A DNA stretch of 64,000 bases from Clostridium sp. CAG:492 (GTDB lineage Bacteria > Bacillota > Clostridia > TANB77 > CAG-508): positions 5,066-69,065 of the forward strand of contig FR878232.1 of the NCBI GenBank assembly GCA_000434335.1. The letters are read 5' to 3'. Below, piece by piece: positions 3,776 to 47,311 of the stretch. The notes below the pieces were generated by a model. It did no database searches and was not told where the DNA came from. It was given only the letters and a program-made list of their open reading frames with translations. The position numbers were made by a program, and so were the translations under genes. Numbering within the stretch: the stretch's first letter is position 1; each line of letters starts with the position of its first letter.

Positions 3776-5810
3776 ATGAAAAAGCTTTTTACGGAAAAAA
3801 AGAAGAAAAAATTATTAGTTTATTTAATACTATGGCTATTGTTAGCCATAGTATTTATCATACCTATATCTGTTGCATATAAGGATTCATTAAATACAAG
3901 AGGAAATTTAGAATTAGATTCATTTCAATCAATTATTACAGGTTATCTTACTAATATTAGCATACGTGTAAAAGCATTTAGCGGAGACTATAAACAAAAT
4001 ACTATTAGTGTATTAGAATATTATTCATTTTTTTATTTAGCTTTTGGAGTTATTTTAATATTAAAAAGTAAAGATGACGGAGAGTACCATAATATAGAGC
4101 ACGGATCTAGTGATTGGTGTGAAAATGGAGAGCAATATAAAGTATTAAGTAAAAATTCTGGAATTATATTAGCAAAAAAGAATTACTTACCAGTAGATAA
4201 ACCAGGAAATGTTAATGTATTAATTGTTGGACGGATCTGGTGCTGGTAAATCTGCATCATACTCAAAACCAAATGCATATCAAAAGTTGGGATCATATGT
4301 ATTTACAGATCCAAAAGGTGAATTATATGATGACACAGCAGGATATTTGAAAAGAAATGGATATGAAATTAAAGTTTTAAATTTGGTTAATCCAAAAAAT
4401 AGTGATGGATACAATCCATTAGCACATATAAAAAGTGATTTAGATGTAGACGTTATAGCATCAACAATAATAAAGGGACAAGAAAAATCTTCCAGTACAT
4501 CTGATCCATTCTGGGATGATACAGCAGAAATGTTATTAAAATCATTAATATATTTTTTGAAATCAACAAGACCACCAGAAGAGCAGAACTTAGCAAGTTG
4601 TGCGGAGCTTGTAAGAGCCGCATCTGCAAATAGTAATGGCGGAAGTCTTTTAAAAGATATGATGAGTGTTTTACCAATAGACCATCCAGCAAGAACTTAT
4701 TACAAAAACGTTGAAGTAGCTTCTGAAAAGACATTTAGTTCAATATTAGTAACGCTACAGGCAAAACTTGGTAAATTTGATTCAAAAGATATAGCAGAGG
4801 TAACATCTACAGATACAATAAATTTTGAAAGAATAGGTAGTGTAAAAACATCTGTGTATGTAATTTCATCTGATACACATACAGCATACGATTTCTTATT
4901 AACAATATTCTTTGCACAAATGATTCAACAATTATATGATTATGCTGATAATAATGGCGGAAAATTAAAAATACCAACATTTTTTATACTTGATGAGTTT
5001 GCTAACATTGGACAAATACCAGACTTTGATAAAAAAATATCAACATCACGTAGTAGAAAAATATCATTTAGTGTTATATTACAAAACTTGGATCAATTGG
5101 AAGCAATATATGAAAAATCTTACGAAACTATAATGGGTAACTGCGATACCCACTTATTCTTGGGAAGTAACTCAACAAAAACAGTTGAATATTTTTCTAA
5201 AGCACTTGGAGAAAAAACAATTTCAAGAGAAAGTATTTCAAAAAACAAAGATAAAGATGGACATAAAAGTGGTACTGGTGAATCTGATCAAATTATGGCC
5301 AGAGCACTTATGACACCAGATGAACTTAGAAGAATGAGTATGGATTATTGTATAATTTATGAAAAGGGCTTAAAGCCTGTAAAAGCAGAAAAATTTTTCT
5401 ATTTTAAATCAAATATGATAAAAGAATTTAATAAATTAAAATTAGACCACAATGACTTTGACGCTGGTGTACGTGGAGAATGGAGAAAATTTAATCCATA
5501 TAAAGTTGGTGCTAATTTAGAAGAAGAAGAGCAGGAAAGTAATTTGAATGTTGAATCATTAGACGATTTATTTGATGATGATGAAACAACAAACTCAAAT
5601 AAAACTGAGAAAATAAAAAAGGAAGATACAGCAGAAAGCAACAACAAATTTGAAAGCGATTTAAATGAATTATTATTTGATGATGAACAGGAAGTAGATA
5701 ATACAGCAGAAACAGAAAACGGTGAAATGCTAGATATTCAGAAGGAATTAGAAGCGAAATTTGATGAACTATTTGGTTCAATAGATGATGAAAACGATGA
5801 TAATGAATAA
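3776..5810 (+). pseudogene. type IV coupling protein (VirD4/TraG family), split by a frameshift inside Walker A (ORFs 3776-4249 and 4224-5810)
   Basis: N-terminal 2-TM region. Walker A is split across the two frames: ...NVLIVG|RIWCW* in one and DGSGAGKSASY in the other. Deleting one base near 4231 restores IVGGSGAGKS. Downstream: FILDEFANIG Walker B-like and an acidic C-terminal tail. Confidence 0.7.
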
Positions 5811-6005
5811 TATAATATGTAAATTAAATATAATTGTTTTAGTAAAGAGCTATGTATAATAAATACTTGGCTCTTTTTATTAATGTTTACCGTCAATATT
5901 TTTTGACACATCAATTTCTTTATTATTTTCACTACATTGCTCTTGTTAAAATAACAATAATGTGATACCATAACAACGAAAAACAAAACAATCGGAGGCA
6001 AAAAA

Positions 6006-7724
6006 ATGAGCACAAATCTATCAAAAGAAAAACGAGAAAAAATACTAAACAACATAAAAATAATGAGATCAAAATTACAAGAAAACCCTGAACTTCTAAT
6101 AACCCTAAATGATATAGAAACAGAGCTAAAAAGAAAAAAATACGGACTAGTTTGGGAAGACCACGAAGAAAAAATAGACAAAGAGCTTTCAGACAAAATA
6201 CCAGTATTCGAAGAAAATAAGGGTTTAGAAATAAAACTAAATCCACAAAAGTCAACAAATTTCATATTAGAAGGAGATAATCTACATAGCTTATATCTAC
6301 TAGAAAAAACACACAAAAACAGTATAGACTTAATAATAATAGATCCACCATACAACAGAGGAATAAATGACTTTGTCTACGATGATAATTATATAGATAA
6401 AACAGATTCATTTAAACACAGCAAATGGATATCATTTATGAGTAGACGTCTAGAAATGGCAAAAAAACTTCTAAAAGACAACGGTGTAATATTCATAAAC
6501 ATAGATGATAATGAATTTGCTCAACTAAAATTATTATGTGACGATATATTTGGAGAAGAAAATTTTATATCATGTTTCCCATGGCATAATAGAACCTCAA
6601 TTCAAAATGATACGGATATAAGCATTAATCACGAATACATAATTGCATATGCCAAAAAAAGAAGAATAACAAATCGTAGATTAAAAGCAAGCAACAAAGA
6701 AAGTTGGTACAATTTAAATGACTTTGTAATACAACCAAAAGAAACGGACTCAAGCAAATACTCAAATCCAGATAATGATCCTAGGGGAATATGGAAAGCA
6801 GACCCATTTGATGCACCAAATGTTAGACCAAATTTAACATATGAAATAATAAATCCAGTAACAGGAGTAAAATATTTACCTCCAAAAGGAAGATGCTGGA
6901 GAACAGAGCCAGAAAAATATAAACAATTATTAGAAGATAAACGAATAGTATTTGGAAAAAACGGAACATCAAAACCACAATTAAAGGTATTTTATAATGA
7001 AGTAAAAATGAAAGGCGAAATACGAAATAGTTGGTTTGATTCTGAAACATATGATACATCAACAAATGGTAAAAAAGAATTTTTATCAATATTACCAGAC
7101 AAAAAAATATTTAATACACCAAAGCCAGTAAATTTATACAAAGAAATAATAAAAATGGCAATTTCACCTAAAGTAGAAAAGCCGGTAATATTGGATTTCT
7201 TTGCAGGCTCTGGAACAGTAGGACAAGCAGTATTAGAAGAATTTAGAGGAAAAAATGCAGAATTTATACTATGTAACAGCAATGAAAATAACATATGTAC
7301 AGAAATAACATATGAAAGAATAAAAAGAATTATACAAGGCTATACAAATCAAAAAGGATATAATGTTCAAGGAATAGAAGCAAACCTAAAATATTACAAA
7401 GTAAAATACATAGATAGATTTAACAGAGAAGATGACGGTTATTATATAGTAAATGAATTATCAAAATACACAAAAGAGCTAGCACAGCTAGAGCACGGAT
7501 TAGATTTACAAGCTGGAGAATTACAAATATTATTTTCGGATGAAGATGTAGACAAATTTACAAAAAATGAAGAAGCCGTAAGCAAATGCAAAATTATTTA
7601 CTTAGATAATAATGCACTAATTACAGAAGAGCAATTAAAATTATTTGAACAAAACGATATAAAAATTTGTTATATTCCAGATTATTATTTTGAAAAAGAA
7701 ATAATGGAGGTTGAACAATGGTAG
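6006..7724 (+). CDS. mod: type III restriction-modification methyltransferase (Mod), beta-class N6-adenine/N4-cytosine MTase
   Basis: KYGLVWE N-terminal motif; IIIDPPYN (motif IV) precedes FFAGSGTVGQAV (motif I), with a target-recognition domain between. Overlaps the res start. Confidence 0.75.
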   Translation: MSTNLSKEKREKILNNIKIMRSKLQENPELLITLNDIETELKRKKYGLVWEDHEEKIDKELSDKIPVFEENKGLEIKLNPQKSTNFILEGDNLHSLYLLEKTHKNSIDLIIIDPPYNRGINDFVYDDNYIDKTDSFKHSKWISFMSRRLEMAKKLLKDNGVIFINIDDNEFAQLKLLCDDIFGEENFISCFPWHNRTSIQNDTDISINHEYIIAYAKKRRITNRRLKASNKESWYNLNDFVIQPKETDSSKYSNPDNDPRGIWKADPFDAPNVRPNLTYEIINPVTGVKYLPPKGRCWRTEPEKYKQLLEDKRIVFGKNGTSKPQLKVFYNEVKMKGEIRNSWFDSETYDTSTNGKKEFLSILPDKKIFNTPKPVNLYKEIIKMAISPKVEKPVILDFFAGSGTVGQAVLEEFRGKNAEFILCNSNENNICTEITYERIKRIIQGYTNQKGYNVQGIEANLKYYKVKYIDRFNREDDGYYIVNELSKYTKELAQLEHGLDLQAGELQILFSDEDVDKFTKNEEAVSKCKIIYLDNNALITEEQLKLFEQNDIKICYIPDYYFEKEIMEVEQW

Positions 7725-9961
7725 GAATTAAGTTAAAAGAATTTCAAGAAAAATGTGTTGAAGAATTATTAGAGCAAACGGTATTTGGTGAAAAAAAAGA
7801 AATTTTATTGCAAGCTCCTACGGGAAGTGGAAAAACAATAATGCTATTAGAATACATAGACAGATTTTTATTAGAAAATAAAGATTATGTATTTGTATGG
7901 TTAACACCAGGCTCTGGAGAGCTTGAAGAGCAAAGTAAAAATAAAATGAATCAACTACTAAAAAATAGAACAACAAAGACATTAAACGAAGTATTAACAA
8001 CTGGATTTGAAGAGCAAGACACAGCTTTTATAAACTGGGAGAATGTAACTAAAAAAGGAAACACAGCATTAAGAGAGCTAGAAAAAAGTAATTTATATGA
8101 CAGAATAGAGCAAGCACAAAATAACGGAATAAAATTTATAGTAATAATAGACGAAGAGCACAGAAATAAAACCGAAAAAGCAGAAAGCATAACCAATTTA
8201 TTTAATGCAAAACATACAGTAAGAGTATCAGCAACAACAAAAAGAAATGATGAAGCATATAACATAAAAATAAGCGAAATGGAAGTTATAAACTCAGGAT
8301 TAATAACAAAATCATTATATATAAATCAAGGAATTGAAAATAATATTTTATTAGATGATGAAATAGAATATCTACTAAAACTTGCAATAAATAAAAGAAG
8401 ACAAATAAGAAATACCTGTACAGAACTTGGAGTAAATTACAATCCATTAGTTATAATTCAATTACCAAGTATGAGTGAAAACTTAATAGAAAAAATAGAG
8501 CAATATCTAGAAAAAGAAGGATTTACATATGACAATGGGTTATTAGCAATATGGCTTGCAGACAGAAAAGAAAATATAGAAAATATAAGTGATAACACAA
8601 GTGAACAATGCTTTTTAATAATGAAACAAGCAATATCAACAGGTTGGGATTGCCCAAGAGCAAAAGTACTAGTAAAAATAAGAGAAAATATGCACGAAGA
8701 TTTTGAAATACAAACTTTAGGAAGAATTCGTAGAATGCCAGAAGGAAAACACTACGGAAATGAAGTACTAGATAACTGTTATTTATATACATTTGATGAC
8801 GAATACACAGAAACAGTAAAACACGAACTAGGAAGACAAGCAAGCAATGTAAAAAGCTTATTTGTAAAAGACGAATTTAGAAAATTTAAATTATATAAAG
8901 AAGTAAAAAATACTGATGCAGATAACTTTGCACCAAGAGAAGCATTTTACGCAATATATGAATATTACTGTAAAGAATATAATTTAGAAAATTCACAAGA
9001 AAAACAAAGTAACGACGGAGATAATAAAGAAGAAAACAAAGAAAGCAACAAAGTAAAACTTGCAAAAGCCGGATACAATTTTAATCAAAATATTACAAAT
9101 GAAGTAGTTCAAGGAAGTGCAATAGAGCTAAATAAAAAGAATTTTATAAACAGTGAAAAAATTCGTATACAAAGTTCAGTAGATACATATAAAAATGGAA
9201 TAGATTTACGTCATTCAATAAATGTAATAGCAACAAAAATAGGAATGGTATATCAATACTTATCACCAATATTGCAAAGATTATTCCTAGGGAATGTGGA
9301 ATTTCCAGAAAAAATATTAAAATTAACTAAAAAAGAATTTTACGCATTTATTATTAATAATGAAAGAAAATTAGAATATGATATATTAAATGCAGTTATT
9401 CAAAAAAGAGAGCAAAGAGTAAAATTGCAAACAGAATTTAAAAAGGTAAAAGAATTTATATTCCCAGAGCGAATAACAGTAAAATATAACAAAAAAGATC
9501 CAAGTTTATCAGAAATGAGCAAGAATGTATATTATGGTTATCCATCAACAACAATAAAATCCTCATCAGAAGAAAAATTTGAAAAATATTGTGAAGCATC
9601 AAGTAAAATAAAATATTGGTATAAAAATGGAGAATCATCAGACGAATTTTTCTCAATAGTATACTTAGATAAAATGAACAAAGCGTGGACTTTTTATCCA
9701 GACTATATAGTAGGTGATACAAAAGGAAATATATGGATAATTGAAACAAAAGGTGGCGAAGATGCCTACGGATACTCAAAAAACATAGATATAAAAATAG
9801 AAAACAAATATGAAGCACTAAAAACATATGCACAAAAATATAATTTAAAATGGGGCTTTGTAAGAGATATAGATGAAGAGCTATACATATCAAATACAGA
9901 TGAATATATAGAAGATATGAAAAGCACAAACTGGATAAACTTAAAAAATTATGAAATATAA
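7718..9961 (+). CDS. res: type III restriction enzyme Res subunit (SF2 helicase plus C-terminal PD-(D/E)XK nuclease)
   Basis: LQAPTGSGKT (motif I), IIDEEHR (DEEH motif II), QAISTGWDCPRAK (motif VI-like). C-terminal YPDYIVGD...IWIIETKGG nuclease motif. Translationally coupled to mod. Confidence 0.75.
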   Translation: MVGIKLKEFQEKCVEELLEQTVFGEKKEILLQAPTGSGKTIMLLEYIDRFLLENKDYVFVWLTPGSGELEEQSKNKMNQLLKNRTTKTLNEVLTTGFEEQDTAFINWENVTKKGNTALRELEKSNLYDRIEQAQNNGIKFIVIIDEEHRNKTEKAESITNLFNAKHTVRVSATTKRNDEAYNIKISEMEVINSGLITKSLYINQGIENNILLDDEIEYLLKLAINKRRQIRNTCTELGVNYNPLVIIQLPSMSENLIEKIEQYLEKEGFTYDNGLLAIWLADRKENIENISDNTSEQCFLIMKQAISTGWDCPRAKVLVKIRENMHEDFEIQTLGRIRRMPEGKHYGNEVLDNCYLYTFDDEYTETVKHELGRQASNVKSLFVKDEFRKFKLYKEVKNTDADNFAPREAFYAIYEYYCKEYNLENSQEKQSNDGDNKEENKESNKVKLAKAGYNFNQNITNEVVQGSAIELNKKNFINSEKIRIQSSVDTYKNGIDLRHSINVIATKIGMVYQYLSPILQRLFLGNVEFPEKILKLTKKEFYAFIINNERKLEYDILNAVIQKREQRVKLQTEFKKVKEFIFPERITVKYNKKDPSLSEMSKNVYYGYPSTTIKSSSEEKFEKYCEASSKIKYWYKNGESSDEFFSIVYLDKMNKAWTFYPDYIVGDTKGNIWIIETKGGEDAYGYSKNIDIKIENKYEALKTYAQKYNLKWGFVRDIDEELYISNTDEYIEDMKSTNWINLKNYEI

Positions 9962-10065: not shown

Positions 10066-10136
10066 TAATGTGCGTACACAATTTAGATGTGCATCCCAAG
10101 CAAGACTAATTGCAATGCCGGAAGGAGGGGAATACT

Positions 10137-10307
10137 ATGTCAGAGACTAAAGTTAAAGATGGTAATTTAGAAGACGCATTGAAAAGATTTAAAAGACAAT
10201 GCGCTAGAAATGGTGTATTACAAGAAGTTCGTAAAAGAGAACACTATGAAAAGCCAAGTGTAAAAAGAAAAAAGAAATCAGAGGCTGCAAGAAAAAGAAA
10301 GTTTTAA
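10137..10307 (+). CDS. rpsU: 30S ribosomal protein S21
   Basis: [47 protein letters not shown]; RBS GGAGGGG. The ORF-track start at 10110 is upstream of the RBS. Confidence 0.85.
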
Positions 10308-10351
10308 TATAATATTAAATTAAAATGTAATATTAATTTTATATTTAAATA

Positions 10352-10390
10352 AAAAAGAGGTAATAACATAGCGTTTTTACCTCTTTTAGT
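10352..10390 (+). terminator. rho-independent terminator after rpsU
   Basis: AAAGAGGTAA...TTACCTCTTT hairpin plus T-run. Confidence 0.5.
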
Positions 10391-10431
10391 GTATAATACA
10401 AAAAGATAATAAAAAAGAGAGGTTGATAAAA

Positions 10432-10875
10432 ATGTTAAAAGAAAAATTATTAGAAGATTTAAAAAATTCAATGAAAGAAAAAAATATTAACAGAAAAAAT
10501 GTAATACAAATGGTAAGAGCAGCAATATTACAAAAAGAAAAAGATAACAACATAGAGCTAGATGATACACAAATAATGGAGATAATATCTAAAGAGCACA
10601 AAAAAAGAGAAGATTCATTAGAAGATTACAAAAAAGCAAACAGAGAAGACATAATAGCACAAATAGAAGAAGAAATAAATGTATTAAACGAATATCTACC
10701 TAAAAAAATGGAAAAAGAAGAGCTAGAAAAAATAATAAGTCAAATAATAGAAGAAACAGGTGCATCAAGTATGAAAGATATGGGAAAAGTTATGAAATTA
10801 GCAAAAGAAAAATGTGGTTTAGCTGCGGATGGAAGAGATATAAATGAAATTGCAAAAGTAATGTTAAATAAATAA
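10432..10875 (+). CDS. yqeY: GatB/YqeY domain protein
   Basis: MLKEKLLEDLKNSMKEKN... matches the YqeY family N-terminus; conserved rpsU-yqeY synteny. ATG at 10432 follows the RBS AGAGAGG. Confidence 0.65.
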   Translation: MLKEKLLEDLKNSMKEKNINRKNVIQMVRAAILQKEKDNNIELDDTQIMEIISKEHKKREDSLEDYKKANREDIIAQIEEEINVLNEYLPKKMEKEELEKIISQIIEETGASSMKDMGKVMKLAKEKCGLAADGRDINEIAKVMLNK

Positions 10876-11406: not shown

Positions 11407-11907
11407 ATGAAAATTATAAATAAAATAATAATTGCAATAATTGCAGTATTAATATTAATTTGTACATATATACCTTCAAATGCAAAAGCCGTTACGATGA
11501 AAAGTATAATTGAAGGTGGAGATATTTTTACACAAAGTGCATCAAATACTGAACTATTTAACGAGACAAATCAAAAAAGTGCTGTAGATGGTATTTATTA
11601 TATTCTACTTGGAGTAGGAATTGTATTAGCTGTTATAATAGGAATTGTATTAGGAATACAGTTTGTAACAACAGGTGTTACTGGACAAGCTAAAATAAAG
11701 GAAAAATTAATACCATATGCAATAGGATGTATAGTAATTTTTGGTGGATTTGGAATCTGGAGAGCTGTAATTAATATGTCGAATGAAGTATTAAATACAG
11801 AAAATACGGAAAATACGGAAACACAATATACTATGCCAGATTCATCTGGAGGTTCTTCTCATACAAGTACGGCTGGAGGCAGTCATGGAGGAGGTAGCTC
11901 TAGATAA
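11407..11907 (+). CDS. VirB2/TrbC-like small membrane protein, paralog 2 (Gly/Ser-rich C-terminal tail)
   Basis: Signal peptide and two TMs; loop motif GQAKIKEKLIPYAIG is homologous to paralogs 1 and 3. Confidence 0.4.
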   Translation: MKIINKIIIAIIAVLILICTYIPSNAKAVTMKSIIEGGDIFTQSASNTELFNETNQKSAVDGIYYILLGVGIVLAVIIGIVLGIQFVTTGVTGQAKIKEKLIPYAIGCIVIFGGFGIWRAVINMSNEVLNTENTENTETQYTMPDSSGGSSHTSTAGGSHGGGSSR

Positions 11908-11984
11908 TAAATTATGTTATTATTATTATTTTCTAAAAGGAAATAAGTTTAATAAATTATTAATTAATATGAGGAGGTTATTTT

Positions 11985-12356
11985 ATGAAAAAAAGCATTA
12001 AATTAATGTTAACAACACTACTAGCTGTTATGTTATTATTTAGTTTTTCACAACCAATGGTATTTGCCGCAGATTCAGGAGATATAATAAATAATTTGAC
12101 AAGTAATGATGAAAATATTATAAAGAATGGCGCAGGCAAAGTTACAGATATAGGTTCAAAAATAATGACTTGGATGTGGATAATATCAATAGTAGTTGCA
12201 GTTATAGTATTAATGTACACAGGACTTAAATTCATCGTAGGAAGTACTCAAGAAAAGGCCGAGTACAAAAAATCATTAATGCCTTTAGTTGTAGGTGTAA
12301 TTATATTAGTATTTGCAACAACAATAGTAAATGTAATATTTTCAATTAATAGTTAG
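11985..12356 (+). CDS. VirB2/TrbC-like small membrane protein, paralog 3
   Basis: Signal peptide; TQEKAEYKKSLMPLVVG loop between two TMs. Confidence 0.4.
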   Translation: MKKSIKLMLTTLLAVMLLFSFSQPMVFAADSGDIINNLTSNDENIIKNGAGKVTDIGSKIMTWMWIISIVVAVIVLMYTGLKFIVGSTQEKAEYKKSLMPLVVGVIILVFATTIVNVIFSINS

Positions 12357-12383
12357 TATAATTATTAATTTAACAACAGATAA

Positions 12384-12420
12384 AAATAGAAAACTTGAAC
12401 AGTTTTCTATTTTTTTTATA
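12384..12420 (+). terminator. rho-independent terminator after the pilin-like operon
   Basis: AATAGAAAAC...GTTTTCTATT hairpin plus a T8 run. Confidence 0.55.
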
Positions 12421-12470
12421 TAAAAAATATCTAATCTTAGGGAAATAAATTAATTGAACATAATTAAAAA

Positions 12471-12530
12471 AATATGTAAAAAAAGAATAGAAAATGTAAT
12501 AAAAATGTAACCAAAATGAAAAAAATGTGG
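12471..12530 (+). promoter_or_regulatory. cluster of ATGTAAT-type direct repeats (includes AAAATGTAATAAAAATGTAAC) upstream of the T4SS core operon
   Basis: ATGT-containing repeats at 12475, 12494, 12505 and 12524. Same motif as upstream of the three adhesin genes. Confidence 0.5.
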
Positions 12531-12633
12531 ATTATAAGGTTTGCGTAAATATTATAATAAAAAAATATATATTTAAGCATTTGACAAAAAAATAATAACC
12601 TGTAAAAATATATAACAAAAGGAGGACACTATT

Positions 12634-13074
12634 ATGGGTATGTATGAAATTCCAAGAAATACAAAAGGTGAAGGAAGAATTTTATATATTTTTTCTACTA
12701 AGGCACTAATATATACAGTAGGAGGAATATTAATAGGAGTTGTATTTAAATGGTTAATTGGTTTAATTGGAAAAGCAGTACCTTCAGCAGCATCAGTTGT
12801 AAATGTAATTGGAATTGCTTTAATCGTAATATTTGCCTTAGTAGGTTTTGCTCTTGGAACATTTAAAGTACCACAAATAGATAAATTTGAGATAACAAGA
12901 AAAGCAGGCGGAATAAGTTTAGATACAGTAGTAAAAGAATATATAAAATTTCACATAAACAAGAATAGATATTATACATATGATACAAGTGATTTAATAA
13001 AAGAAGAAATAGAAAGAAAAGAAAAAGAAGACAAAAAGGCAGAAGAAGAGAAACTTAGAAAGGAGAAAAAATAA
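12634..13074 (+). CDS. VirB3-like small T4SS membrane protein (PrgI/Orf17-like)
   Basis: 146 aa, two TM helices, directly upstream of VirB4. Translationally coupled (TAATG) to the next gene. Confidence 0.45.
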   Translation: MGMYEIPRNTKGEGRILYIFSTKALIYTVGGILIGVVFKWLIGLIGKAVPSAASVVNVIGIALIVIFALVGFALGTFKVPQIDKFEITRKAGGISLDTVVKEYIKFHINKNRYYTYDTSDLIKEEIERKEKEDKKAEEEKLRKEKK

Positions 13075-14390
13075 TGAGTGGTGATGGAATTATACAAATA
13101 CTTATTGCAGGAATTGCAATAATAATAGTTGTGTTAGTTTGTGTACTAGCATATATCTACGTGAAAGATAAAATAAAGGAAAAATCAGAAAACATTGAAA
13201 TTTCTCCTGAAACAAAAAAAGAAGATAAAAGCGACAAAAAATCTGTGTTTAGATTTATGGAATTTGATTCAATAGAAGACAATATGATAATTCAAGACGG
13301 TGGAAGTAGATATTTAATGGTAATTGAATGTAAAGGTATAAATTATGATTTGTTATCAGGTATTGAAAAAACGAGTGTTGAACAGGGGTTCTTACAGTTT
13401 TTAAATACATTAAAATATGAAATTCAAATATATATACAAACAAGGAAAGTAAATTTAAATCAAAGTATATTAGCATATAAAGAAAGAGTTGAAAAAATTA
13501 AGGAATCATTAAGATATGAAGAAGCTAAACTAGAGGATATGCAAAGAATAGGTGGAAGCACAAGAGCAGAAATATTAAAACAAATAAAAGAAGTTACTAA
13601 AAAAAGAAATTTATATGATTATGCACAGGATTTAATACAAACTACAGAGCAAATGTCAGAAGATAAAGATATTACAACAAAACAATATTATATAGTTATA
13701 CCATATTATACTGAAGAAATTACATCTGCAGGTGATTATGATAAAAGAGAAATTGGAACAATGGCGTTTTCTGAATTGTATACAAGAGCACAATCTTTGG
13801 CAAATGGTCTTTCAGAATGTGATGTAAGAGGAAGAATATTAACTTCACAAGAGCTAATAGAATTATTGTATGTAGCATATAACAGAGAGCAACACGATAT
13901 ATATGATTTTGATGAGTATTTAAGTGAATCTTGTTACCAATCGTTATATTCTGTTTCTGAAGATATTTTAGATAAAAGAATGAAAGCAATTGATGAAGAA
14001 ATTGAAAAAAAGGCAAATCAAAAAGCTATATATGCATTTGAAATGGCATCAGATGAAGTTAGAAGACGTAAAGCAGTAATTGATGAAAGAGAAAAAAGAA
14101 TTAAAGAACAAATAAATAAAAGAGCAGATGAATTAGTAAACGAACAAGAAGGAATAATGGGTTCAGAGCTAACTAAAATGACAAAAGAAAATTTAAAAAA
14201 GATGACAGAGCGAGACAAAAAAGAAGAGGAAAAAGTAGATGCAGAAAAGAAAAAAGTAAGAAAGTTAACAGAGGAAGAGCGAAAACGAAGATTGGCAATA
14301 CGAAAAAGAAAATTAATGAAAGAGAGGGAGAAAAATGGCATTATTCAAAAAGAAAATAGCACAGGAAGTAAATCAAGCAAACAAGATTGA
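13074..14390 (+). CDS. T4SS membrane protein with a VirB4 N-terminal (TrbE/CagE-type) domain and a KE-rich coiled-coil tail
   Basis: N-terminal TM. DNMIIQDGGSRYLMVIECKGINYDLLSGIEKTSVEQGFLQFLNTLKYEIQIY matches the VirB4 N-domain pattern (kDGS...G.D......E...Ln.L). Confidence 0.45.
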   Translation: MSGDGIIQILIAGIAIIIVVLVCVLAYIYVKDKIKEKSENIEISPETKKEDKSDKKSVFRFMEFDSIEDNMIIQDGGSRYLMVIECKGINYDLLSGIEKTSVEQGFLQFLNTLKYEIQIYIQTRKVNLNQSILAYKERVEKIKESLRYEEAKLEDMQRIGGSTRAEILKQIKEVTKKRNLYDYAQDLIQTTEQMSEDKDITTKQYYIVIPYYTEEITSAGDYDKREIGTMAFSELYTRAQSLANGLSECDVRGRILTSQELIELLYVAYNREQHDIYDFDEYLSESCYQSLYSVSEDILDKRMKAIDEEIEKKANQKAIYAFEMASDEVRRRKAVIDEREKRIKEQINKRADELVNEQEGIMGSELTKMTKENLKKMTERDKKEEEKVDAEKKKVRKLTEEERKRRLAIRKRKLMKEREKNGIIQKENSTGSKSSKQD

Positions 14391-16302
14391 TGAAGAAGCA
14401 AGAAAAAGAATAATAAGAAGAAAAACAATAAAAGAAATGATAGCACCAACAGGTATTGATGCCTCAAGCCTAGATCACTTAGAAATAATTTCAAATATAA
14501 ATAGATATGCACGAAGCTTTTTCGTGGCCAATTTACCACGTATGTGTACATTCCCAGAGCTATTTAGAAGTATGTATATGTTTGGTGATATAAACACATC
14601 TGTTTATATAAGTCCAATTTTGGAATCAAAATCGCAAAACGATTTAAACAGAGTAATAAATGAGCTAGAAACAGAGAGAATTTTAGCTGAAGATAGAGGA
14701 AATATAAACAGAGCAAGATTACTTGCACAAAAAAGAATGGAAACAGAAGATTTAAGAGACGAGATAGCAGCAGGATTTAATAAAATGTTTGAAGCAACAA
14801 TTGTTTCTACATTATTTGCGTATGATTTAAAAACTTTAGATACATATACAAGATTACTTTCTACAGAAATGGCCAAAAGTTTAGTTGATTTAAAGTCAAC
14901 TTGGGCAAACCAAGAGCAAGGTTTTCAAACTAATTTGCCATTAATGAGAAAGAAAATAGATGAAAAACATTTATTTGATAGAGGATCAATGGGAACCGTA
15001 TTTCCATTTGTAACAAGTGAAATAGGTCACCCAACTGGAATACCTCTAGGATATAATGCACAAACAGGAACTCCAATTTTATTCGATAATTTTCATGAGT
15101 CATTAACAAATTACAATATGGTTATTTTTGCAAAATCTGGTGCTGGTAAATCTGTAACAATGAAAACTTTAGTTTCTAGATCAGCAGTACTTATGGGAAT
15201 TGAAAGTTTAGCCTTAGATGCAGAAGGCGAGTATTCTGTAGTTGCTGAAAGTTTAGGCGGAATAAATGTTGTTATAAGCCCAAATTCGGATACTATAATT
15301 AATTTATTTGACTTAGAAACAGAAACTGTAAAAGATGAAATATTAGGTACAGAGCGAACTGTTTTAAATATTGAAAGTAAAATTGAAGATGTTACCCAAG
15401 CACTAGTTACTATGGCAAAAGGTAGTACAAAAAGTACAGAAGTAAATGAACTTACAAAACAAATAATTGCAGAGTCTGTAGCTGATGAATATGCAAGACT
15501 TGGAATAACAAATGATCCATCAAGTTTATATGAAAGTGAAGCTTCAAAAGTAGTAAATGGAGAAATAGTTAGACCAAAAAAGAAAATGCCAACTATAGGT
15601 TCGTGGTACAGACAAATACAAGAAAAAGCTGCTAATAATACAAACTCAGATTATCAGTTTCATTACAGTTATTTAATAAAGGTAATGAAACAATATGTAA
15701 GAGAGTATGATGGTCAAATGGCATATTTTGATGGACAGTCAACATTTGAATTACTAGAAGGAGCACCATTTATTAACCTAGATATTTCTGCACTAGAAGA
15801 AAGATTTGCAAGACCATTAGCACAACAAATTTTATTATCTTGGATTTGGGAGAAATTTGTAAAAAAGAATAGTGAAGATAGAAAGAAGGCAAGAAAAAAA
15901 CGTGTTTTAGTTGATGAGGCTTGGATGTTACTTCCGTATCCAGAAGCTGTAGACTTTTTAAATACAATGGCAAGACGTGCAAGAAAAAGAAATGTATCTT
16001 TAGCTGTTATATCACAGAGATTTCAGGACTTTTACGAAAAACAAGAAGTACAGGCTGTTCTTACATCATCAGAAACGAAGTTGTTTTTAGCACAAGATAA
16101 GTCTGAAATAGAGTATTTGAAAGAAGTGTTTAAGTTAAGCGAAGGTGAAGCCAACTTTTTAATAACTTGCCAAATAGGACAAGGGTTATTGAAAGTCGGT
16201 CAAGATACAGCAATAATTACAATTAGACCAACAGCAAAAGAATTTCAATTTATGGAAACTAACTTAAACAAAGTAATTGCCCAAAAATATGGAGCTTATT
16301 GA
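14335..16302 (+). CDS. VirB4-family T4SS ATPase
   Basis: Walker A FAKSGAGKSVT; Walker B RVLVDEAWML; N-terminal IAPTGIDASSLDHLEI...RSFFVANLP region typical of Gram-positive VirB4. Confidence 0.75.
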   Translation: MALFKKKIAQEVNQANKIDEEARKRIIRRKTIKEMIAPTGIDASSLDHLEIISNINRYARSFFVANLPRMCTFPELFRSMYMFGDINTSVYISPILESKSQNDLNRVINELETERILAEDRGNINRARLLAQKRMETEDLRDEIAAGFNKMFEATIVSTLFAYDLKTLDTYTRLLSTEMAKSLVDLKSTWANQEQGFQTNLPLMRKKIDEKHLFDRGSMGTVFPFVTSEIGHPTGIPLGYNAQTGTPILFDNFHESLTNYNMVIFAKSGAGKSVTMKTLVSRSAVLMGIESLALDAEGEYSVVAESLGGINVVISPNSDTIINLFDLETETVKDEILGTERTVLNIESKIEDVTQALVTMAKGSTKSTEVNELTKQIIAESVADEYARLGITNDPSSLYESEASKVVNGEIVRPKKKMPTIGSWYRQIQEKAANNTNSDYQFHYSYLIKVMKQYVREYDGQMAYFDGQSTFELLEGAPFINLDISALEERFARPLAQQILLSWIWEKFVKKNSEDRKKARKKRVLVDEAWMLLPYPEAVDFLNTMARRARKRNVSLAVISQRFQDFYEKQEVQAVLTSSETKLFLAQDKSEIEYLKEVFKLSEGEANFLITCQIGQGLLKVGQDTAIITIRPTAKEFQFMETNLNKVIAQKYGAY

Positions 16303-16384
16303 TGTTTAGAATACGTAATATATTGACAAATGCTGGCGAACAATGTAAAATTAAAGTAATGATTATTTTAGATCGGAGAGAATA

Positions 16385-19300
16385 ATGAAAAATAGTAAAT
16401 TAGTTAACAAATTTAAAAAAATATTAATAACTGTTTTATGTATTATTACAGTTTTTTTCTCTATGCCAGTAAAAGCTAAAGCTGATGCAGGAGTATTAGA
16501 AAGCGTAGCATCATTTTTATTATTAGTACCTGATGGAATACAATTATTATTAAATACATTTGTTAGTGATGAAACTGAGGATGTTAAATTTCTTATTAGA
16601 TTACAGGTAATAGATAAGAACGCTAATTTATTTACTAATGATACGGGAAGTTTATATAATATAGAAGTAACTCCGTATGATATTTTTACAGCAGGAACGC
16701 CAACATTATACGGTGAATTGATAGAGAAACGAGACGAAATAAATTATAGTGTTCAAAACGGAGAAATGACGACCGCAGATGCGGTAGCAACTATAAAGGA
16801 AAATGTTGAATCTACTGAACCGGAAGCATTTATGACGAAAAGTTTAGTTAAAATGCCTTTATTAGATGCAAATTTTTTTAAAAAAACAACGAATAGCTCG
16901 TCAAGTTCTGATGAACAGGTGAATTCTGCAGATGTTCTAAGACCGGTAGTTGCAAATGTATATAAAAACTTAAGAAATTTTGTATTAATAATAATGCTTG
17001 CAATATTACTTTACACTGGGATAAGAATAATAGTATCTTCAGCTGTTTCTGAACAGGTTAAATATAAACAATATTTGGTTAATTGGGTTGTTGGAATATG
17101 CCTAATATTTTTAATGCAATATATAATGAGTGCAATTATGAATGTAACAACGATAGTAAATAAAATGTTAATTACTAATACAGATGGAGAGAGTTATAGA
17201 ATTGGATTTGGAACAAAAGATTCCAAAGCAGCTTCTGTTTTTAGAACAATTGCAAAACCTTATAATATGAGTGAAAAAGAGCAAGCACAACGAGATGCAT
17301 ATGAGAAAAGTCTCGAATCGCCACCGACATCTGTTAAACTTAGTGATGATTTCCAGTATAACAATCCCAATCTTGCTACCCAGTATTTATCGGCTTGGTT
17401 GAATAAAAAAGCCGATGATGAAAACAAGAATAATGGTGATGGATGGACAGAATTAGCTAACAGTGATGACGAAAAGATATCGAATTTTGTAAATAGAAAA
17501 ATAGAAATTGCGGATAATGGGGCAATATTCATATTTGATAAAGACAATAAAACAGTTTATGATTATACTGCAGATATCTCGCAAACACCTATTAAGATTA
17601 ACGCTGGAATATACGATGAAAGTGTGAATGGATTTAGAGCTATATATAAGTGTAATATTGCTGAATTTTGCAGGACAATAACAACTTTCTCATCAAAATA
17701 TACACATTTATATAACAATAAAAAGACAATGATTATGACAGATTCAAGTGAAGAAAAGGAAAATGATTATGCTGTAGGAGCTTTTTGGGGATATGCATTT
17801 TTATATATATTGATTACTATAGAAACAGTTGTATTTTTATATAAATATTTAAAAAGAGTAATTTGGTTGGCGTTTTTGACAATGATAGCACCATTAATTG
17901 CAGTTATGTATTCAGTTGACAAAATTGGAGATGGAAAAGCGCAAACTTTTAATATGTGGTTCAAAGAATATTTATTTAATTCATTAATACAACCATTACA
18001 TTTATTGTTATATACTATATTTTTAGGTGCTTCAATGGAATTAATGGCAAGCAATGTAATTTATGCAATAGTTGCATATGCGTTTATGATACCAGCCGAA
18101 AAATTCTTTAAGAAAATGTTCGGATTTGATAAAGCATCAACACCAGGAGGTCTTGGAAGTCCAGCAGCAGGAATGATGGCAATGAGAGGATTAGATAAAT
18201 TAGGTGGATTTGGCCCTCACGGAAAAGGTGCTAAAGGCGGAAAAGATGCAGGCAAAACTAAAATACCATTAGCAAAAGGTAAACTTGGAGGTGGTGGACT
18301 TGCTCCAGCTGGTCCTACTGGAGCAGCTGGAGCAGCCGGAGCAACACCACTTACAGCAGCAAGAACAGGAGCAGGAGGAGCAACAGCCGGAGCAGCAGCT
18401 GGAAGTGCAGCCACTGGAAGTGCTTCTGCAGCCGCAGGTGCAGGAACAGCTGGAGGGTCAAGAAGATTAAGATCTGCAGGAGGAATTTCCTCTGGCACAG
18501 CCGGAAAAGCAAGACGAAGAGGTTCTAGTAGTGTTTTAGGCGGAATGGGTAGAGCATTAGGAAATAGAACAGCAATGAGAATAACTGGAGGTAAAAGTGC
18601 TACCTTAGGTCAAGCCTTTACAACAAGAGCTGGCTTAGCAGGTATGGCAAAAAATGGATTTAATTTTGCAGCAAGACAAATAGGCAGAACTGCTGGCGGT
18701 ATAGGAGGCTCATTAATTGGACTAGGAGTTGGAGCAGTAAGTGGAGCATTAGGAACAGCATTAACTGGAGAAGATAAATTTTCAGATGCTGTTCAAAAGG
18801 GATTATTAGCCGGAAGTGCAGCTGGAGCTAATAGAGGAACTCAATTTACAGATTGGTCAACTGGTGGAGTTGAAGATTTGTATGGTGAAGGTAGAAGATA
18901 TGCAGCAATTGATCCTGAGGATGAAAAACAACTTGAAAGAGCTGCTAGATTAAAAGCAGAAGATTGGAGCCAAGAACATATGTCTGAGGTAAGTACATTA
19001 TCAGCAGATGAATATAAAGAGAAAATGGACTTCGCAGAAGAGGCATTTAAATATACTGATGATATTGAAGATTTAGATCAATTAGAGAGAATGCAAGGAT
19101 ATTCTACTGATGCAAGTGGAAAAATAGATGAAGATAAATTCGCAGAAGCTATAGATTATGAGAAGATAACAAAGAGATTTGGTGATTTCAATGTGGATGC
19201 TAAGAAGAAAGACAATTACACTACATATAGAGCTCGCGAAATTGCTGATGGATTTAAAAATGGTACAATACAATTTAATCAAACAGAAATGACCAAAATA

Positions 19301-20426: not shown

Positions 20427-20457
20427 AATAAAAATGACCAGGAAAGGAGGTAAGGCT

Positions 20458-23400
20458 ATGAATGATAATAATGAAGAAGATGACGATGATGTAGTAGTAA
20501 ATGATGAAGCAGTTGATACTACTGATGGAGAAGCAGATAATAACGATGAAGGTTTGCAAAGTCAAAGTGATGTACAAGATGATATGCAAAATATTGCAAA
20601 CTCGATTAATTTAAAAAAAAGAAAAAATAAAGATAAAGCATCTGGAAAAAGATTATTAGCAGCAGGAAAAGCCTTATATCATACTGGTGATGTTTTAGTA
20701 AAAGTTGGAGAAGATACACAAAGAGTAGGTAATGAGATTAAGAACCTAGGAGAAAAGCTAAAAGAAAAAGGAAAGAAAGAAGTCAAAGATGCAACAGAAG
20801 ATTTTAAAACAGGTTTAAAACTTTGTAAAACAGGAGTAGGTGCACTTGTAGGAGTTCCATTATGTTTAAGAAGTATACTAAAAATGATTAAGGGTGGAGC
20901 TACTATACTTGGTGGTAGTATACTTAAGGTAATTGGTAGTTTAATAAACTTTATGGGAAAAGCACTAGCTGCCGTAGGAAAAGCAATGAGAGCCATTGGA
21001 CAAAAGATGATGGAAATTGCCAATAAGAAAATAGCAGAAGCTGGTGGAAATATTTCTAATTTGTCTATGCCAGGAGGAAAAAATGATAAAGATGATGTTG
21101 AAGTTAATTCTATTCCCGGCGTTGGCGGATTATCAGAAACAAAATTAAGTAAAACAAAAAAAATAATAATTATGATAGCAATAGGTGCGGCGATCGTTAT
21201 AGCTTTTGTTTGGATTCTTATGCAAGATTGGGAATCGACAAAGGAAAATGGTAGTGAAGTTACAGGAGATTTAAAAAATGTTCCATATACTGTATCATCT
21301 AAAATAATGGACAATTTGGTTATTGCCACAGATGAATCTGGAGCATATACATATGGGTTTAAAAATGATGATGGTGAAATTGTTGATATAGATCAGGCAA
21401 TTGATTCAGCAATAAAATCATTAGAGGAAAATAAAAGCAAATCATTGTATTATTTGGGTAAGAATACTGATAATAGAAAAGCACTACTAAAAAAAATGAT
21501 TTTAGCGGAAATTGCAACACAATATCCAGATTTAAGTGATTCTGTTGATTTAGGTTTAAGTGGTACAAGTACTTCTGGAACATCAAGTAGTGTAAATAGT
21601 TCAAATGATACAAATAGTAATTCATCTAGTAGTTCAACAAATGTTGATGAAATTATTAAAAATATGACAATTGAAGAAAAAATATATCAAATGATAATGA
21701 TGCAAGCAATAGTAAGTGATGGTTCAAATTATGCGGATACTTCAGTTGGAGGAGTTATTGTTGCAACTAATTCTAATTATGATGCAAATTTAGCAAATAT
21801 TGGATCAAAATATAAAATAACACCTTTTGTTGCTACTGATGATGAAGGTGGAAATGTAGAAAGAGCAGCAACTGGATATAAAACAGCAAGAGAATATGGC
21901 GATTCTGAAGATTATGATGAATTATATAATTCAGAAGTAAAAAAATGCAAAGAATTATTGTCAAAAGGAATTAATTTGAATTTAGGTCCTGTTTCTGATG
22001 TTATTAGTAGTGGCGCATTATATGACCGTAGCTATGGTAGTGATTCTGCTAAGGTTGAAAAATGTATAGAAACAATACTTAAAGCAAGAGCATCAGTTAA
22101 TGTTAGTGGAAATAGTGTAGGATCTACATTAAAACATTATCCGGGTTATCCTGATAATAATACTAATACAGATACAGGAATTGCAAAGGATAATAGATCT
22201 ATTGACAAAATAAATGATAATATAAATGTATTTAAACAAGGAGTAAATAATGGAGCTAATGCTATAATGGTTTCAAATGTAATTTATACAAACTTAGATG
22301 CTAATAATCCAGCTTCATTATCACCAACAATTATTTCAGGATTAAGATCTTCTTTTTCTGGAGTTATAATGACAGATGACATTGGTTCAGCAGCTGGTGT
22401 AAGTAGTATTTCAGATAGATATAAAAAAGCTATCTTAGCTGGAAATGATATGATATTAGTGTGGGATTCTAATTTAAATGACGCATATTCACAAATAAAG
22501 GCAGCAGTTGATAGTGGCGAAATTACTGAAGAGCGTATTAATGAATCTGTTACAAGAATTTTAAATTGGAAGTTGAACGGAGGTACTTTAAGTGGAAATA
22601 ATAGTAGCTCTTCGAATAAAAACTCAGTAAAAGCAACAGCTGGAACTGGAGATGCAAAGACAAGTGAAAAATTTAACAGCTCTTCAAAAATTAATGGTGG
22701 AATTAAAGTGCAAAGAAAACTTGAAAGTGGTAGTGTAATTAATTTAAAATACACATCTACAGAAAATTTTAATGCTTTGATGGCTTCTAATAGTGATGAT
22801 ATAATAAATTATTATACATTACAAAAAAAGGCATCAAGTTCAAGTTCAAAATCTATCGAAGGTGATTTTAGTGGATCTAATAATGCAGAGATAATTTGGA
22901 ATTTTTTAACTAGTAAAGGATTGTCAGAAACGTGTACTGCTGCAATATTAGGAAATTTATATAAAGAAAGTGGACTTAACCCAGGAGTGGAAGAAAACAC
23001 ACCTGCATTAGATAAGGGATACGGTTTGGCACAATGGACATTTGAAAGACGAACACAAATAGAAACATATGCACAGGCTATGAATAAACCTGTAAGTGAT
23101 ATTGAATTACAGTTACAATTTTTATGGTTAGAAATTGATTCAGATGCAGACCATACATATGCAAACCTTCAATGGGGAGGAAGAGATGGATGGCAAGATA
23201 CTAATGGTTTATATCAACGATTTATTAATATGACAGATATAGATGAGGCAACAGCATTTTTCTGCTGGAATCATGAAAGACCAAATGAAGAATATGCTCA
23301 TTTAGAGGGCGAAGATGGAAGAAAAGCTTGGGCTAAAAAGTTTTATGATTTGTATGCAGGTAAAAAATCATCTTCAAGTTCGTCAACTACAAGTAGTAGT

Positions 23401-33126: not shown

Positions 33127-33501
33127 ATGGAATTTATACCATACAAAGCTCATGAATGTTTTGAACATTTATATTATCAAATACCAATGGAGTTATTCCT
33201 TAACAAAAATTATAAAGATAATTTAAATTCAGATAGCAAAATTCTTTATGGCTTTTTACTAAATAGACTAACATTATCAGCAAAAAATAATTGGGCTGAT
33301 GAAGAAGGAAATGTTTTTCTAATATTTACTAGAAAAGAAGTACAAGAATTACTGGGTTTATCTGATAAAACAGTTACAAAAGCTTTTAAGCAATTAAAGG
33401 ATTGTAAATTAACATATGAGAAAAAGCAAGGCGCAAATAAACCTAATTTGATTTATGTTGGAAAGATAGAACATGATAAAAATCTTATACAACATTCGTA
33501 A
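33127..33501 (+). CDS. RepA_N-family replication initiator (N-terminal wHTH domain), possibly truncated or frameshifted
   Basis: LYGFLLNRLTLSAKNNWADEEGNVFLIFTRKEVQELLGLSDKTVTKAFKQLKD is the RepA_N signature. Only 124 aa; the overlapping ORF 33473-33694 may be its displaced C-terminus. Confidence 0.5.
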   Translation: MEFIPYKAHECFEHLYYQIPMELFLNKNYKDNLNSDSKILYGFLLNRLTLSAKNNWADEEGNVFLIFTRKEVQELLGLSDKTVTKAFKQLKDCKLTYEKKQGANKPNLIYVGKIEHDKNLIQHS

Positions 33502-43679: not shown

Positions 43680-44026
43680 AGTATTCCTCCTTTATAATGT
43701 TTTTATATAAAATCCGATTACATCGGATAGAATTAAGTAATTAGGGGTCAATCTATTTAAAATACATCATTGGAACTTGGTTCAAGATGCATATAATTTT
43801 TAATCTGATTTTCAATGTGCTCACCAGTATACATACGGGTTATTTGCATAAAACTTTAATACACTTATATATCATAATGCATTTTACATAAAATGTCAAC
43901 CATTTTACTAAAATCCTTTAAACACTTATTATTACAATTTATAAGAAATGAAAAAATATAAATAGTAAAATTAAATGAATTAACAAAGATAAATCCAGAT
44001 GAAAAATAAATCATAGTATATACAAT

Positions 44027-44050
44027 AAAAATGTAATAAAAATGTAATAA
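44027..44050 (+). promoter_or_regulatory. 22-bp tandem repeat AAAATGTAATAAAAATGTAATAA upstream of adhesin gene 1
   Basis: Identical 22-mer at 47167-47189; near-identical copies at 61786-61825 and 12491-12512. Lies ~50 bp upstream of a TTGACT -35-like hexamer. Confidence 0.5.
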
Positions 44051-44168
44051 TTGCCAATTAAACGTATTTCCCTAGCAAAAACCTCCCAAAATGCTAAAAA
44101 TATAAATTTGACTTACAAAAAAAATAATTTAAAATATAGTTAAAATAAAAAGAGGGAGGATTTGAGGA

Positions 44169-47029: not shown

Positions 47030-47166
47030 TGCTTTTTTTATATAATTTTGTATTTAATTAAAATTTTTTGGTAAATACACAAATTGGTTGATTAGTATTT
47101 GGGCTACGGAATTAAGGAAAAAAGAATTTTAGTCGAATAATTTAGTTTTTGTTACGAAAAAAGTAT

Positions 47167-47190
47167 GAAAATGTAATAAAAATGTAATAA
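47167..47190 (+). promoter_or_regulatory. 22-bp tandem repeat AAAATGTAATAAAAATGTAATAA upstream of giant adhesin gene 2
   Basis: Two 11-bp direct repeats one helical turn apart. Followed by TTGACT-N16-TAAAAT promoter-like hexamers at ~47236-47263. Confidence 0.5.
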
Positions 47191-47311
47191 ATACATAAAC
47201 AAATAAAATCCGTAGAATAAGTGTAGTTTTTTTAATAAATTTGTAATTTGACTTATATTTATAAATCATTAAAATGATGTTAAGATAAAAAACTTTTGAA
47301 GGGAGATTATC

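Follow-up and report, generated by a model that had tools for sequence, protein, structure and literature searches.

How transfer is switched on in the conjugative elements of gut Firmicutes is largely unknown, and the elements considered here come from organisms that have never been cultured. The window, meaning the whole 64-kb stretch of DNA analysed, raises this question at one short intergenic region, where an ATGTAAT repeat precedes the core operon of a conjugative T4SS. The initial annotation noted the same repeat near large adhesin genes and placed conjugation machinery and adhesins in one putative regulon. Is the repeat a regulatory element, does it join these two sets of genes, and which protein might read it?

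The gene content of the window is that of a Firmicute-type conjugative element (Table 1), with a GC content of 25–34% per 2-kb window and about 26% for most of its length. The element is represented by at least 18 metagenome contigs, whose source label, where given, is human gut; no near-identity match to 11900–16400 was found among PLSDB plasmids. The T4SS core operon runs on to about 28460 and includes TraC-like, VirB4-like and cell-wall hydrolase genes. Among relatives, the hydrolase domains of the protein encoded at 20434–25521 vary (glucosaminidase, Hydrolase_2, GDSL lipase, NlpC/P60). Between the helicase and pilin genes, at 10110–10875, the conjugative cluster also encodes ribosomal protein S21 and a YqeY-like protein. 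The S21 gene is found at this position in every syntenic relative examined (also L012–L028) and YqeY in most of them; in L025/L026 the gene at that position has no recorded Pfam match. In the adhesin region, the ORFs 47312–57514 (3400 aa) and 57714–61637 (1307 aa) make up a single adhesin frame of about 4,770 aa. A frameshift in an A7 run near 57493–57499 (window 57480–57720) interrupts it; the candidates are an error of assembly, a pseudogene and phase variation by slippage.

The sequence details first described for the T4SS promoter region are all present. AAAATGTAATAAAAATGTAACC occupies 12491–12512, flanked by ATGTAA at 12474 and ATGTGG at 12525. The upstream pilin operon ends in a hairpin and T-run (−12.2 kcal/mol, z = −5.0), a structure skipped by a terminator scanner because its stem holds too few G–C pairs. 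The -35-like TTGACA lies at 12581–12586, followed by a 17-bp spacer and TG-n-AAAAAT, and the gene at 12634 belongs to the PrgI family (VirB3-like), with a weak Pfam score of 25.5 bits against a cut-off of 27. What the initial annotation described was the repeat itself; it did not include the 11-bp direct-repeat organization typical of response-regulator sites, or a second conserved box (box2) downstream.

The repeat is real and not a product of chance. The word ATGTAAT alone is not enriched in the window (42 occurrences versus 35 expected), while AAAATGTAA is (17 versus 7.1 expected, a count reached in 0 of 100 shuffles). The 20-mer AAAATGTAATAAAAATGTAA is found exactly at 12491, 44028 and 47168, and with a single mismatch at 61784; allowing up to three mismatches, the window holds eight matches versus 0.58 expected. 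These four copies are all on the forward strand and all intergenic, preceding the T4SS core operon and three adhesin units, and three of them come after the hairpin terminator of the preceding gene; the copy at 44028 lies in a spacer common to a divergent ORF at 43679. Tandem Repeats Finder independently reported 11-bp arrays at 12465–12528, 44024–44050, 47157–47191 and 61783–61828. One point needs correcting: the three motif-bearing adhesin units are those that begin at 44169, 47312 and 61949. The ORF at 57714 lacks the motif and is the frameshifted continuation of the 47312 ORF.

In each array the conserved unit is a hexamer, TGTAAT or TGTAAC, recurring every 11 bp. The arrays at 12495 and 61788 are alike in their order (TGTAAY, TGTAAY, TGAAAA and a fourth hexamer) and in their 11-11-9 spacing. 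The core of each array, TGTAAT-N5-TGTAAY, is an exact instance of TGTWAH-N5-TGTWAH and also fits the refined form TGTWAHA-N4-TGTWAHA. The former pattern has six matches in the window versus 1.84 expected, among them 12495–12511, 44032–44048, 47172–47188 and 61788–61804. Seven other contigs of the same element span the array (L012–L018), and all have the same repeat count, with one base substitution just outside the 20-mer as the sole difference in L013 and L017. This constancy speaks against a slipped-strand phase-variation repeat. Plasmid iterons, which are repeats of 17–22 bp beside a rep gene or origin, were also rejected: the unit here is 11 bp, it precedes four unrelated operons, the RepA_N gene is at 33127, and similar arrays are found in the chromosomes of metagenome-assembled genomes (MAGs). 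A search of 12300–12700 against Rfam returned no RNA family.

The array is the distal part of a three-part module. Downstream of the TGTAAH hexamers lies box2, with the consensus WTSCSTAR, and downstream of box2 a sigma-A-type promoter of the form TTGACW-N16–18-TAAAAT-like. The box2 core starts 40, 40, 40 and 41 bp upstream of the -35 (at 12540, 44067, 47207 and 61844), and the combination box2-N32–34-TTGACW has four occurrences across both strands of the whole window, all of them at the four modules, versus 0.12 expected. A ribosome-binding site and an ATG follow in each case (12634, 44169, 47312, 61949). The arrays lie 75–100 bp upstream of the -35 and about 105–125 bp upstream of the inferred start site, and box2 is centred at about -72. 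Apart from the hexamers, box2 and the promoter, the upstream regions of the four copies are dissimilar.

Table 1. Positions in the window of the control modules and of the genes around them
Feature	Position	Strand	Description
Coupling protein gene	4224–5810		
DNA methylase and helicase genes	6006–9961		
VirB2-like pilin genes	10960, 11985		
Intrinsic terminator of the VirB2-like pilin operon	12382–12417	+	Hairpin then T-run; equivalent in syntenic relatives
Degenerate array of 11-bp units	12465–12528	+	Consensus TAATAAAAATG, 6.1 copies (Tandem Repeats Finder)
Hexamer starts in the T4SS array	12475, 12495, 12506, 12517, 12526	+	TGTAAA, TGTAAT, TGTAAC, TGAAAA, TGTGGA
Core direct repeat	12495–12511	+	TGTAAT-N5-TGTAAC; exact WalR/VicR consensus match
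Box2 of the T4SS promoter	12540–12548	+	TTTGCGTAA; same spacing in all four modules and in about 20 orthologous promoters
Sigma-A-type promoter of the T4SS core operon	12581–12609	+	TTGACA-N17-(TG)n-AAAAAT; TTGACA and GTAAAAT kept in orthologues
Ribosome-binding site and PrgI/VirB3-like gene	12619–13074	+	AAGGAGG; first gene of the T4SS core operon
TraC-like gene	13074		
VirB4-like gene	14335		
Hydrolase gene	20434–25521		1695 aa; GH3, lysozyme and C39 domains; inside the T4SS operon
RepA_N gene	33127		NikA also encoded
Relaxase gene	34543		
Integrase gene	40193		
Large adhesin ORFs	44169, 47312, 57714		SpaA/TED/DUF11; further ORF from 61949
Module of adhesin gene 44169–46976	44032–44135	+	TED/SpaA/DUF11 adhesin
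Parts of this module	44032–44048; 44067–44075; 44108–44135		TGTAAT-N5-TGTAAT; box2 TTTCCCTAG; TTGACT-16-TAAAAT
Module of giant adhesin 47312–57514	47172–47275	+	Adhesin continued by 57714–61637
Parts of this module	47172–47188; 47207–47215; 47248–47275		TGTAAT-N5-TGTAAT; box2 AATCCGTAG; TTGACT-16-TAAAAT
Module of the ORF from 61949	61788–61914	+	ORF runs off the window
Hexamers of this module	61788, 61799, 61810, 61819		TGTAAT, TGTAAT, TGAAAA, TGTAAT
Remainder of this module	61844–61852; 61886–61914		Box2 TTTCCGTAA; TTGACT-17-AAAAAT

To our knowledge, box2 matches no described site. In some promoters it has an inverted partner adjoining the -35, as in L051 (TTGCGTAA-N21-TTACGCAA-gaTTTGATT), in L032 and at 61844–61885 of the window (TTCCGTAAT...ATTACGTAG-TTTGACT); the arrangement is not shared by all modules, with 12540–12580 and these promoters among those compared. 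Where present, the partner hints at a separate dimeric factor. Several assignments of box2 fail on geometry. A promoter for an ECF sigma factor, with TGTAAC as -35 and the CGTA of box2 as -10, would have a gap of 12, 22 or 32 bp and not a fixed 16–17; the GG-N10-GC spacing of a sigma-54 site is absent; and, read as a WalR half-site, box2 lacks a consistent partner and falls out of helical phase with the array, at 28 bp. By inspection, Spo0A, CcpA and CodY boxes do not fit.

Comparison with relatives shows which of these elements are kept. Syntenic clusters were fetched via the PrgI-like protein, which has more than 1,200 homologues, and not via the motif. Where PrgI is 54–78% identical (49% in one case), the spacer between pilin and PrgI genes has diverged while the module elements remain in the same order: terminator, two to five TGTAAW hexamers with a 10–11 bp period, box2, TTGACW (TTGATT in L032 and L051) and a TAAAAT-like -10. 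Box2 reads TTTGCGTAA, TTTGCCTAA or ATTCCGTAR in these orthologues and always starts 39–40 bp upstream of the -35. Its distance from the start of the last hexamer is 15, 25/26 or 35/36 bp, in steps of one helical turn. When the alignment is anchored on box2 alone, the hexamers and the -35 are the only other conserved columns, and within the array it is the hexamers that are conserved, the 5-bp stretches between them being variable (AAAAA, TATTT, GAAAG, ACTAT, AATAT, ATATA).

The module is not uniform across the family. L022 and L031 have decayed arrays in which the period is kept, with two TGTAAT 33 bp apart, and in L033 the array is nearly lost. Clusters at 43–52% identity (group B) carry an inverted array of two or three (A/G)TTACA-N5 units followed by ATTAAA-N5, with spacers that are not A-tracts, and a further set (group C; L066, L094, L099 and others) has a short spacer without an array. 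Among cultured bacteria, the T4SS closest to this one are carried by plasmids of C. beijerinckii and C. botulinum, with about 40% identity in the VirB4-like protein; they lack the module and so supply no annotated precedent. In a related element (L027/L028), extra TGTAAT arrays are found at about 1145 and 3361, before the methylase/helicase operon and near glycosyltransferase genes; in the window, the stretch before the methylase gene (5810–6006) has no array.

The module is likewise kept before adhesin genes. Homologues of the 44169 adhesin (46–51% identity) sit in adhesin arrays on contigs of 96–390 kb, and five such orthologues on other contigs carry the module, with hexamers 36 and 25 bp before box2 and box2 (AATCCGTAR, TATCCGTAT or TTTCCCTAA) 39–40 bp before TTGACW. 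An adhesin homologue of 35% identity in a housekeeping context lacks it. Whether adhesins travel with the T4SS had been suggested as a comparative check, and they do not strictly do so: no T4SS gene was called within 10 kb on either side of the module-bearing adhesins, so the module is not confined to the conjugative element. The proposal of a single motif linking the T4SS core operon and adhesins draws support from these comparisons, as the module precedes all four units, is found nowhere else in the window and is kept in both sets of orthologues. Since it is kept in distant relatives, the T4SS and adhesin genes are probably switched together. A role of the adhesins in mating-pair stabilization is speculation. 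Taken as a conserved functional cis-module common to the T4SS operon and the adhesins, the region is very probably interpreted correctly.

The identity of the protein that reads the array is a more tentative matter. We consider the chances about even that 12465–12528 is the distal element of a conserved three-part control region at which a host WalR-type regulator is predicted to co-regulate conjugation and adhesins. A binder from the OmpR family as a whole is predicted with somewhat better than even confidence, and a WalR-type orphan in particular with confidence at or a little under even. Direct TGTAAH repeats one helical turn apart have both the layout and the sequence that winged-helix regulators of the WalR/VicR/YycF branch recognize. 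As in WalR/VicR sites, two TGTWAH words stand in direct repeat with 5 bp between them, in an intergenic, promoter-upstream position conserved in orthologues. Phosphorylated dimers or oligomers of such a regulator, assumed to be host-encoded, would sit head to tail on the array, and a second factor would occupy box2 on the same face of the helix, with or without which the regulator would modulate transcription. The stepwise offsets between array and box2, together with the fixed distance from box2 to the promoter, point to a single nucleoprotein complex, assembled on one DNA face, that would act on RNA polymerase at the sigma-A promoter. Because the -35 boxes are near-consensus, the sign of regulation cannot be read from the sequence. 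For the T4SS operon and the three adhesin units, activation would be the most likely effect, with activation or counter-silencing favoured, and conjugation machinery and surface adhesins would then answer one signal.

A candidate for this regulator comes from chromosomal arrays. An extended-motif scan with one genome per species found 11 loci, all in uncultured gut Clostridia or Clostridium MAGs, in which the unit is repeated two to seven times in tandem in intergenic DNA. The genes behind these arrays encode a sortase with a secreted protein, a VWA protein with a sorting-signal-like C-terminus, three prepilin-like proteins and a response regulator; the sortase, VWA and prepilin-like genes point to a surface-protein regulon. 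Box2 is absent from these chromosomal arrays (L001–L011). At one locus (L004, 1012–1060) a five-unit array follows the ftsH stop codon and precedes the ftsH terminator, rather than standing before a promoter. A scan of viral contigs with a 2.5-unit motif gave four matches, three of them in giant-virus MAGs, and was uninformative.

The response regulator behind one of these arrays (L006) is of the WalR type. Its best NCBIfam model is YycF (331 bits versus a cut-off of 340), followed by MtrA (248 bits), and the five best PDB matches of its DNA-binding domain are all WalR, VicR or YycF (113–119 bits; MtrA 84). The recognition-helix stretch RTVDVTVRR(I/L)REKIE is the same except for I in place of L, and the wing residues are almost unchanged. 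Among the best-scoring 120 of 7,999 database clusters below the E-value limit, the regulator is 80–98% identical. In four chromosomal contexts (L116–L119, gene 6001–6744) it has housekeeping neighbours and no histidine kinase within 6 kb, and is therefore called an orphan. In two lineages (L006 and L116/117), TGTAAY-N5-TGTAAT-N5-TG(A/T)AAA adjoins the weak -35 CTTGTA of the regulator's own gene. An array abutting the weak -35 of its own gene is the classical layout of positive autoregulation in the PhoB/OmpR family. A third lineage has only one TGTCAT at this promoter. Across about 50 kb of non-redundant chromosomal DNA around the regulator genes and L115, the strict motif is found only at the regulator promoter.

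Several observations weigh against assigning the T4SS array to this protein. A distance of about 105–125 bp is far for direct contact with RNA polymerase, near-consensus -35 boxes may need no activator, and it is unusual for WalR to have arrays of 3–7 units like those at the MAG loci. The word TGTAAH is a simple one for DNA of 26% GC, the WalR reading gives no account of box2, which is missing from the chromosomal arrays, and the array is decayed in some orthologues (L033, L022/L031) and lacking in others (group C). The orphan regulator may be a paralogue with a different role. It is also absent from the window and the T4SS loci, and its presence in the host of the element is assumed: tblastn of the WalR-type regulator against the window and the loci fetched by that stage gave no match except its own source (L006), no response regulator is encoded in the window or any fetched T4SS locus, and a look-up of cluster members tied no T4SS-bearing MAG to a regulator-bearing one. 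A literature search found no report linking a WalR-type regulator to a conjugative T4SS. A stronger version of the WalR reading, in which the highly conserved orphan of this clade of human-gut Clostridia would be a master switch turning on giant adhesins and the T4SS of a large family of conjugative elements together, via the TGTAAH arrays and a second factor on box2, is graded as doubtful. If true, it would mean that gene transfer in the gut is gated by a host cell-envelope signal, through a Gram-positive counterpart of ArcA/TraJ control that was arrived at independently.

The rival that survives best, though we still hold it to be rather unlikely, is that another sequence-specific protein binds the array and the WalR match is coincidental. 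Candidates are other OmpR-family regulators that use a related half-site, such as PhoP-, CovR- or RpaB-like proteins, and a factor encoded elsewhere on the element. The group B arrays go on as ATTAAA-N5-ATTAAA, which resembles the CovR word ATTARA. Direct repeats closely resembling the present array, with TGTWA/TTACA words spaced at 11 bp, are the sites of PhoP, RpaB and ArcA (PMC4168254, PMC7303359). Box2, being specific to the T4SS and adhesin modules, could be the site of an element-specific factor, and the window spans only 64 kb of the element. However, no DNA-binding regulator was found in the window besides an excisionase-like small ORF, and the same array precedes chromosomal genes in many MAGs, including the gene of the WalR-type regulator itself. 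Adhesin arrays that carry the module away from T4SS genes likewise favour a host factor over an element-encoded one.

An improbable reading is that the array works as intrinsically curved DNA, in which phased A-tracts every 11 bp would form a structural enhancer without a dedicated protein. Clostridium promoters are known to be stimulated by phased A-tracts on their upstream side, the units in the window each carry an A4–5 tract in helical phase, and the offsets between array and box2 step by about 10 bp, as expected if the helix face matters. Yet it is the TGTAAH hexamers that are conserved and not the spacers, which are often not A-tracts, and this makes pure curvature unlikely. Nor does the array, at about -105 to -125 (75–100 bp upstream of the -35), occupy the position of an UP element, and a 20-mer identical at three sites is more than curvature requires. 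A phased A-tract or UP-like element was rejected on these grounds.

We hold it very unlikely that the repeats lack a regulatory role, being low-complexity or AT-rich minisatellite sequence, or copies within the element of one promoter cassette, shared by common descent only. On the side of this reading, the window is 26% GC and rich in short A-rich tandem repeats, ATGTAAT alone is not enriched, copy number ranges from 2 to 7 across loci and one array follows a stop codon. Against it, the hexamer-box2-promoter geometry is fixed across orthologues of 46–78% identity with the intervening bases randomized, the flanks of the four window copies are unlike, near-identical copies of the element show no variation in copy number, and the module is found nowhere else in the window.

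Under the preferred reading of a host WalR-type site, the module gives a prediction, one regulator for mating machinery and adhesins, and a named candidate protein. It also provides a sequence signature for co-regulated surface and transfer genes in metagenomes. Should transfer really be gated by an envelope-sensing regulator of the host, horizontal gene flow in the gut would depend on the host cell's physiological state. The same logic, host-state gating of transfer, is already established for F-like plasmids in enterobacteria.

In sequence, the closest family is the WalR/VicR box. The consensus of WalR/VicR (YycF) is TGTWAH-N5-TGTWAH (PMC4168254, PMC9210968), refined in S. mutans VicR to TGTWAHA-N4-TGTWAHA (PMC4168254). 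VicR footprints were obtained in both orientations and include the surface adhesin gene wapA (PMC4168254). Known targets of WalR/VicR comprise wapA, gtfB/C, gbpB and wall hydrolases (PMC4168254, PMC9210968), and the whole genome of C. difficile has only 29 exact intergenic matches to the consensus (PMC9210968). The arrays described here share with these boxes the hexamer direct repeats, the 11-bp spacing and the exact consensus, and the inverted arrays of relatives parallel VicR sites in either orientation; the wall hydrolase of 1695 aa in the T4SS operon is likewise in keeping with WalR/VicR regulons. Unlike those boxes, the arrays can have 3–7 units, lie about 105–125 bp upstream and are coupled to a fixed second box. 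The targets also differ, in that they belong to a mobile element and consist of a conjugative T4SS operon and giant adhesins, and the candidate is an orphan without an adjacent WalK.

Other OmpR-family systems share part of this layout. RevR of C. perfringens is an orphan YycF/PhoB-like regulator of this family that controls secreted and surface-related genes (PMC4877802), and by description (orphan, YycF-like, clostridial) it resembles the regulator of the gut clade. Like Pho boxes (PhoB/PhoP), whose units are hexamers or heptamers, the arrays string together several direct-repeat units in tandem, spaced by one turn of the helix, and the promoter of the candidate regulator, with its array abutting a weak -35, has a Pho-box-like arrangement for positive autoregulation. 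In contrast to Pho boxes, which adjoin the -35 or take its place, the T4SS and adhesin arrays are far from the -35, and only a part of the hexamers conforms to TT(A/T/C)ACA, the word of B. subtilis PhoP.

In function, the closest analogue is the PY promoter of F-like plasmids (R1, F, pSLT). There, the host supplies ArcA, whose site TGTTAA-N5-TGTTAA spans -76 to -60, and the plasmid supplies the activator TraJ, which recognizes an adjacent inverted repeat (-51 to -38), both being needed for expression of the transfer operon from a promoter with a non-canonical -35 that is silenced by H-NS (PMC7303359). The two systems have in common a similar repeat word (TGTTAA fits TGTWAH), a second separate site and, for the module as predicted here, a tie between conjugation and a host two-component signal. 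PY is Gram-negative, however, and in the present module the array lies at about -105 to -125, box2 is a single site of 8–9 bp at about -72, the -35 is TTGACW and adhesins share the module; no TraJ homologue was found in the window. The module is thus an analogue, and not a member, of ArcA/TraJ-type PY control: its nearest functional counterpart is a promoter of enterobacterial plasmids, while its nearest relatives in sequence are the boxes of WalR/VicR.
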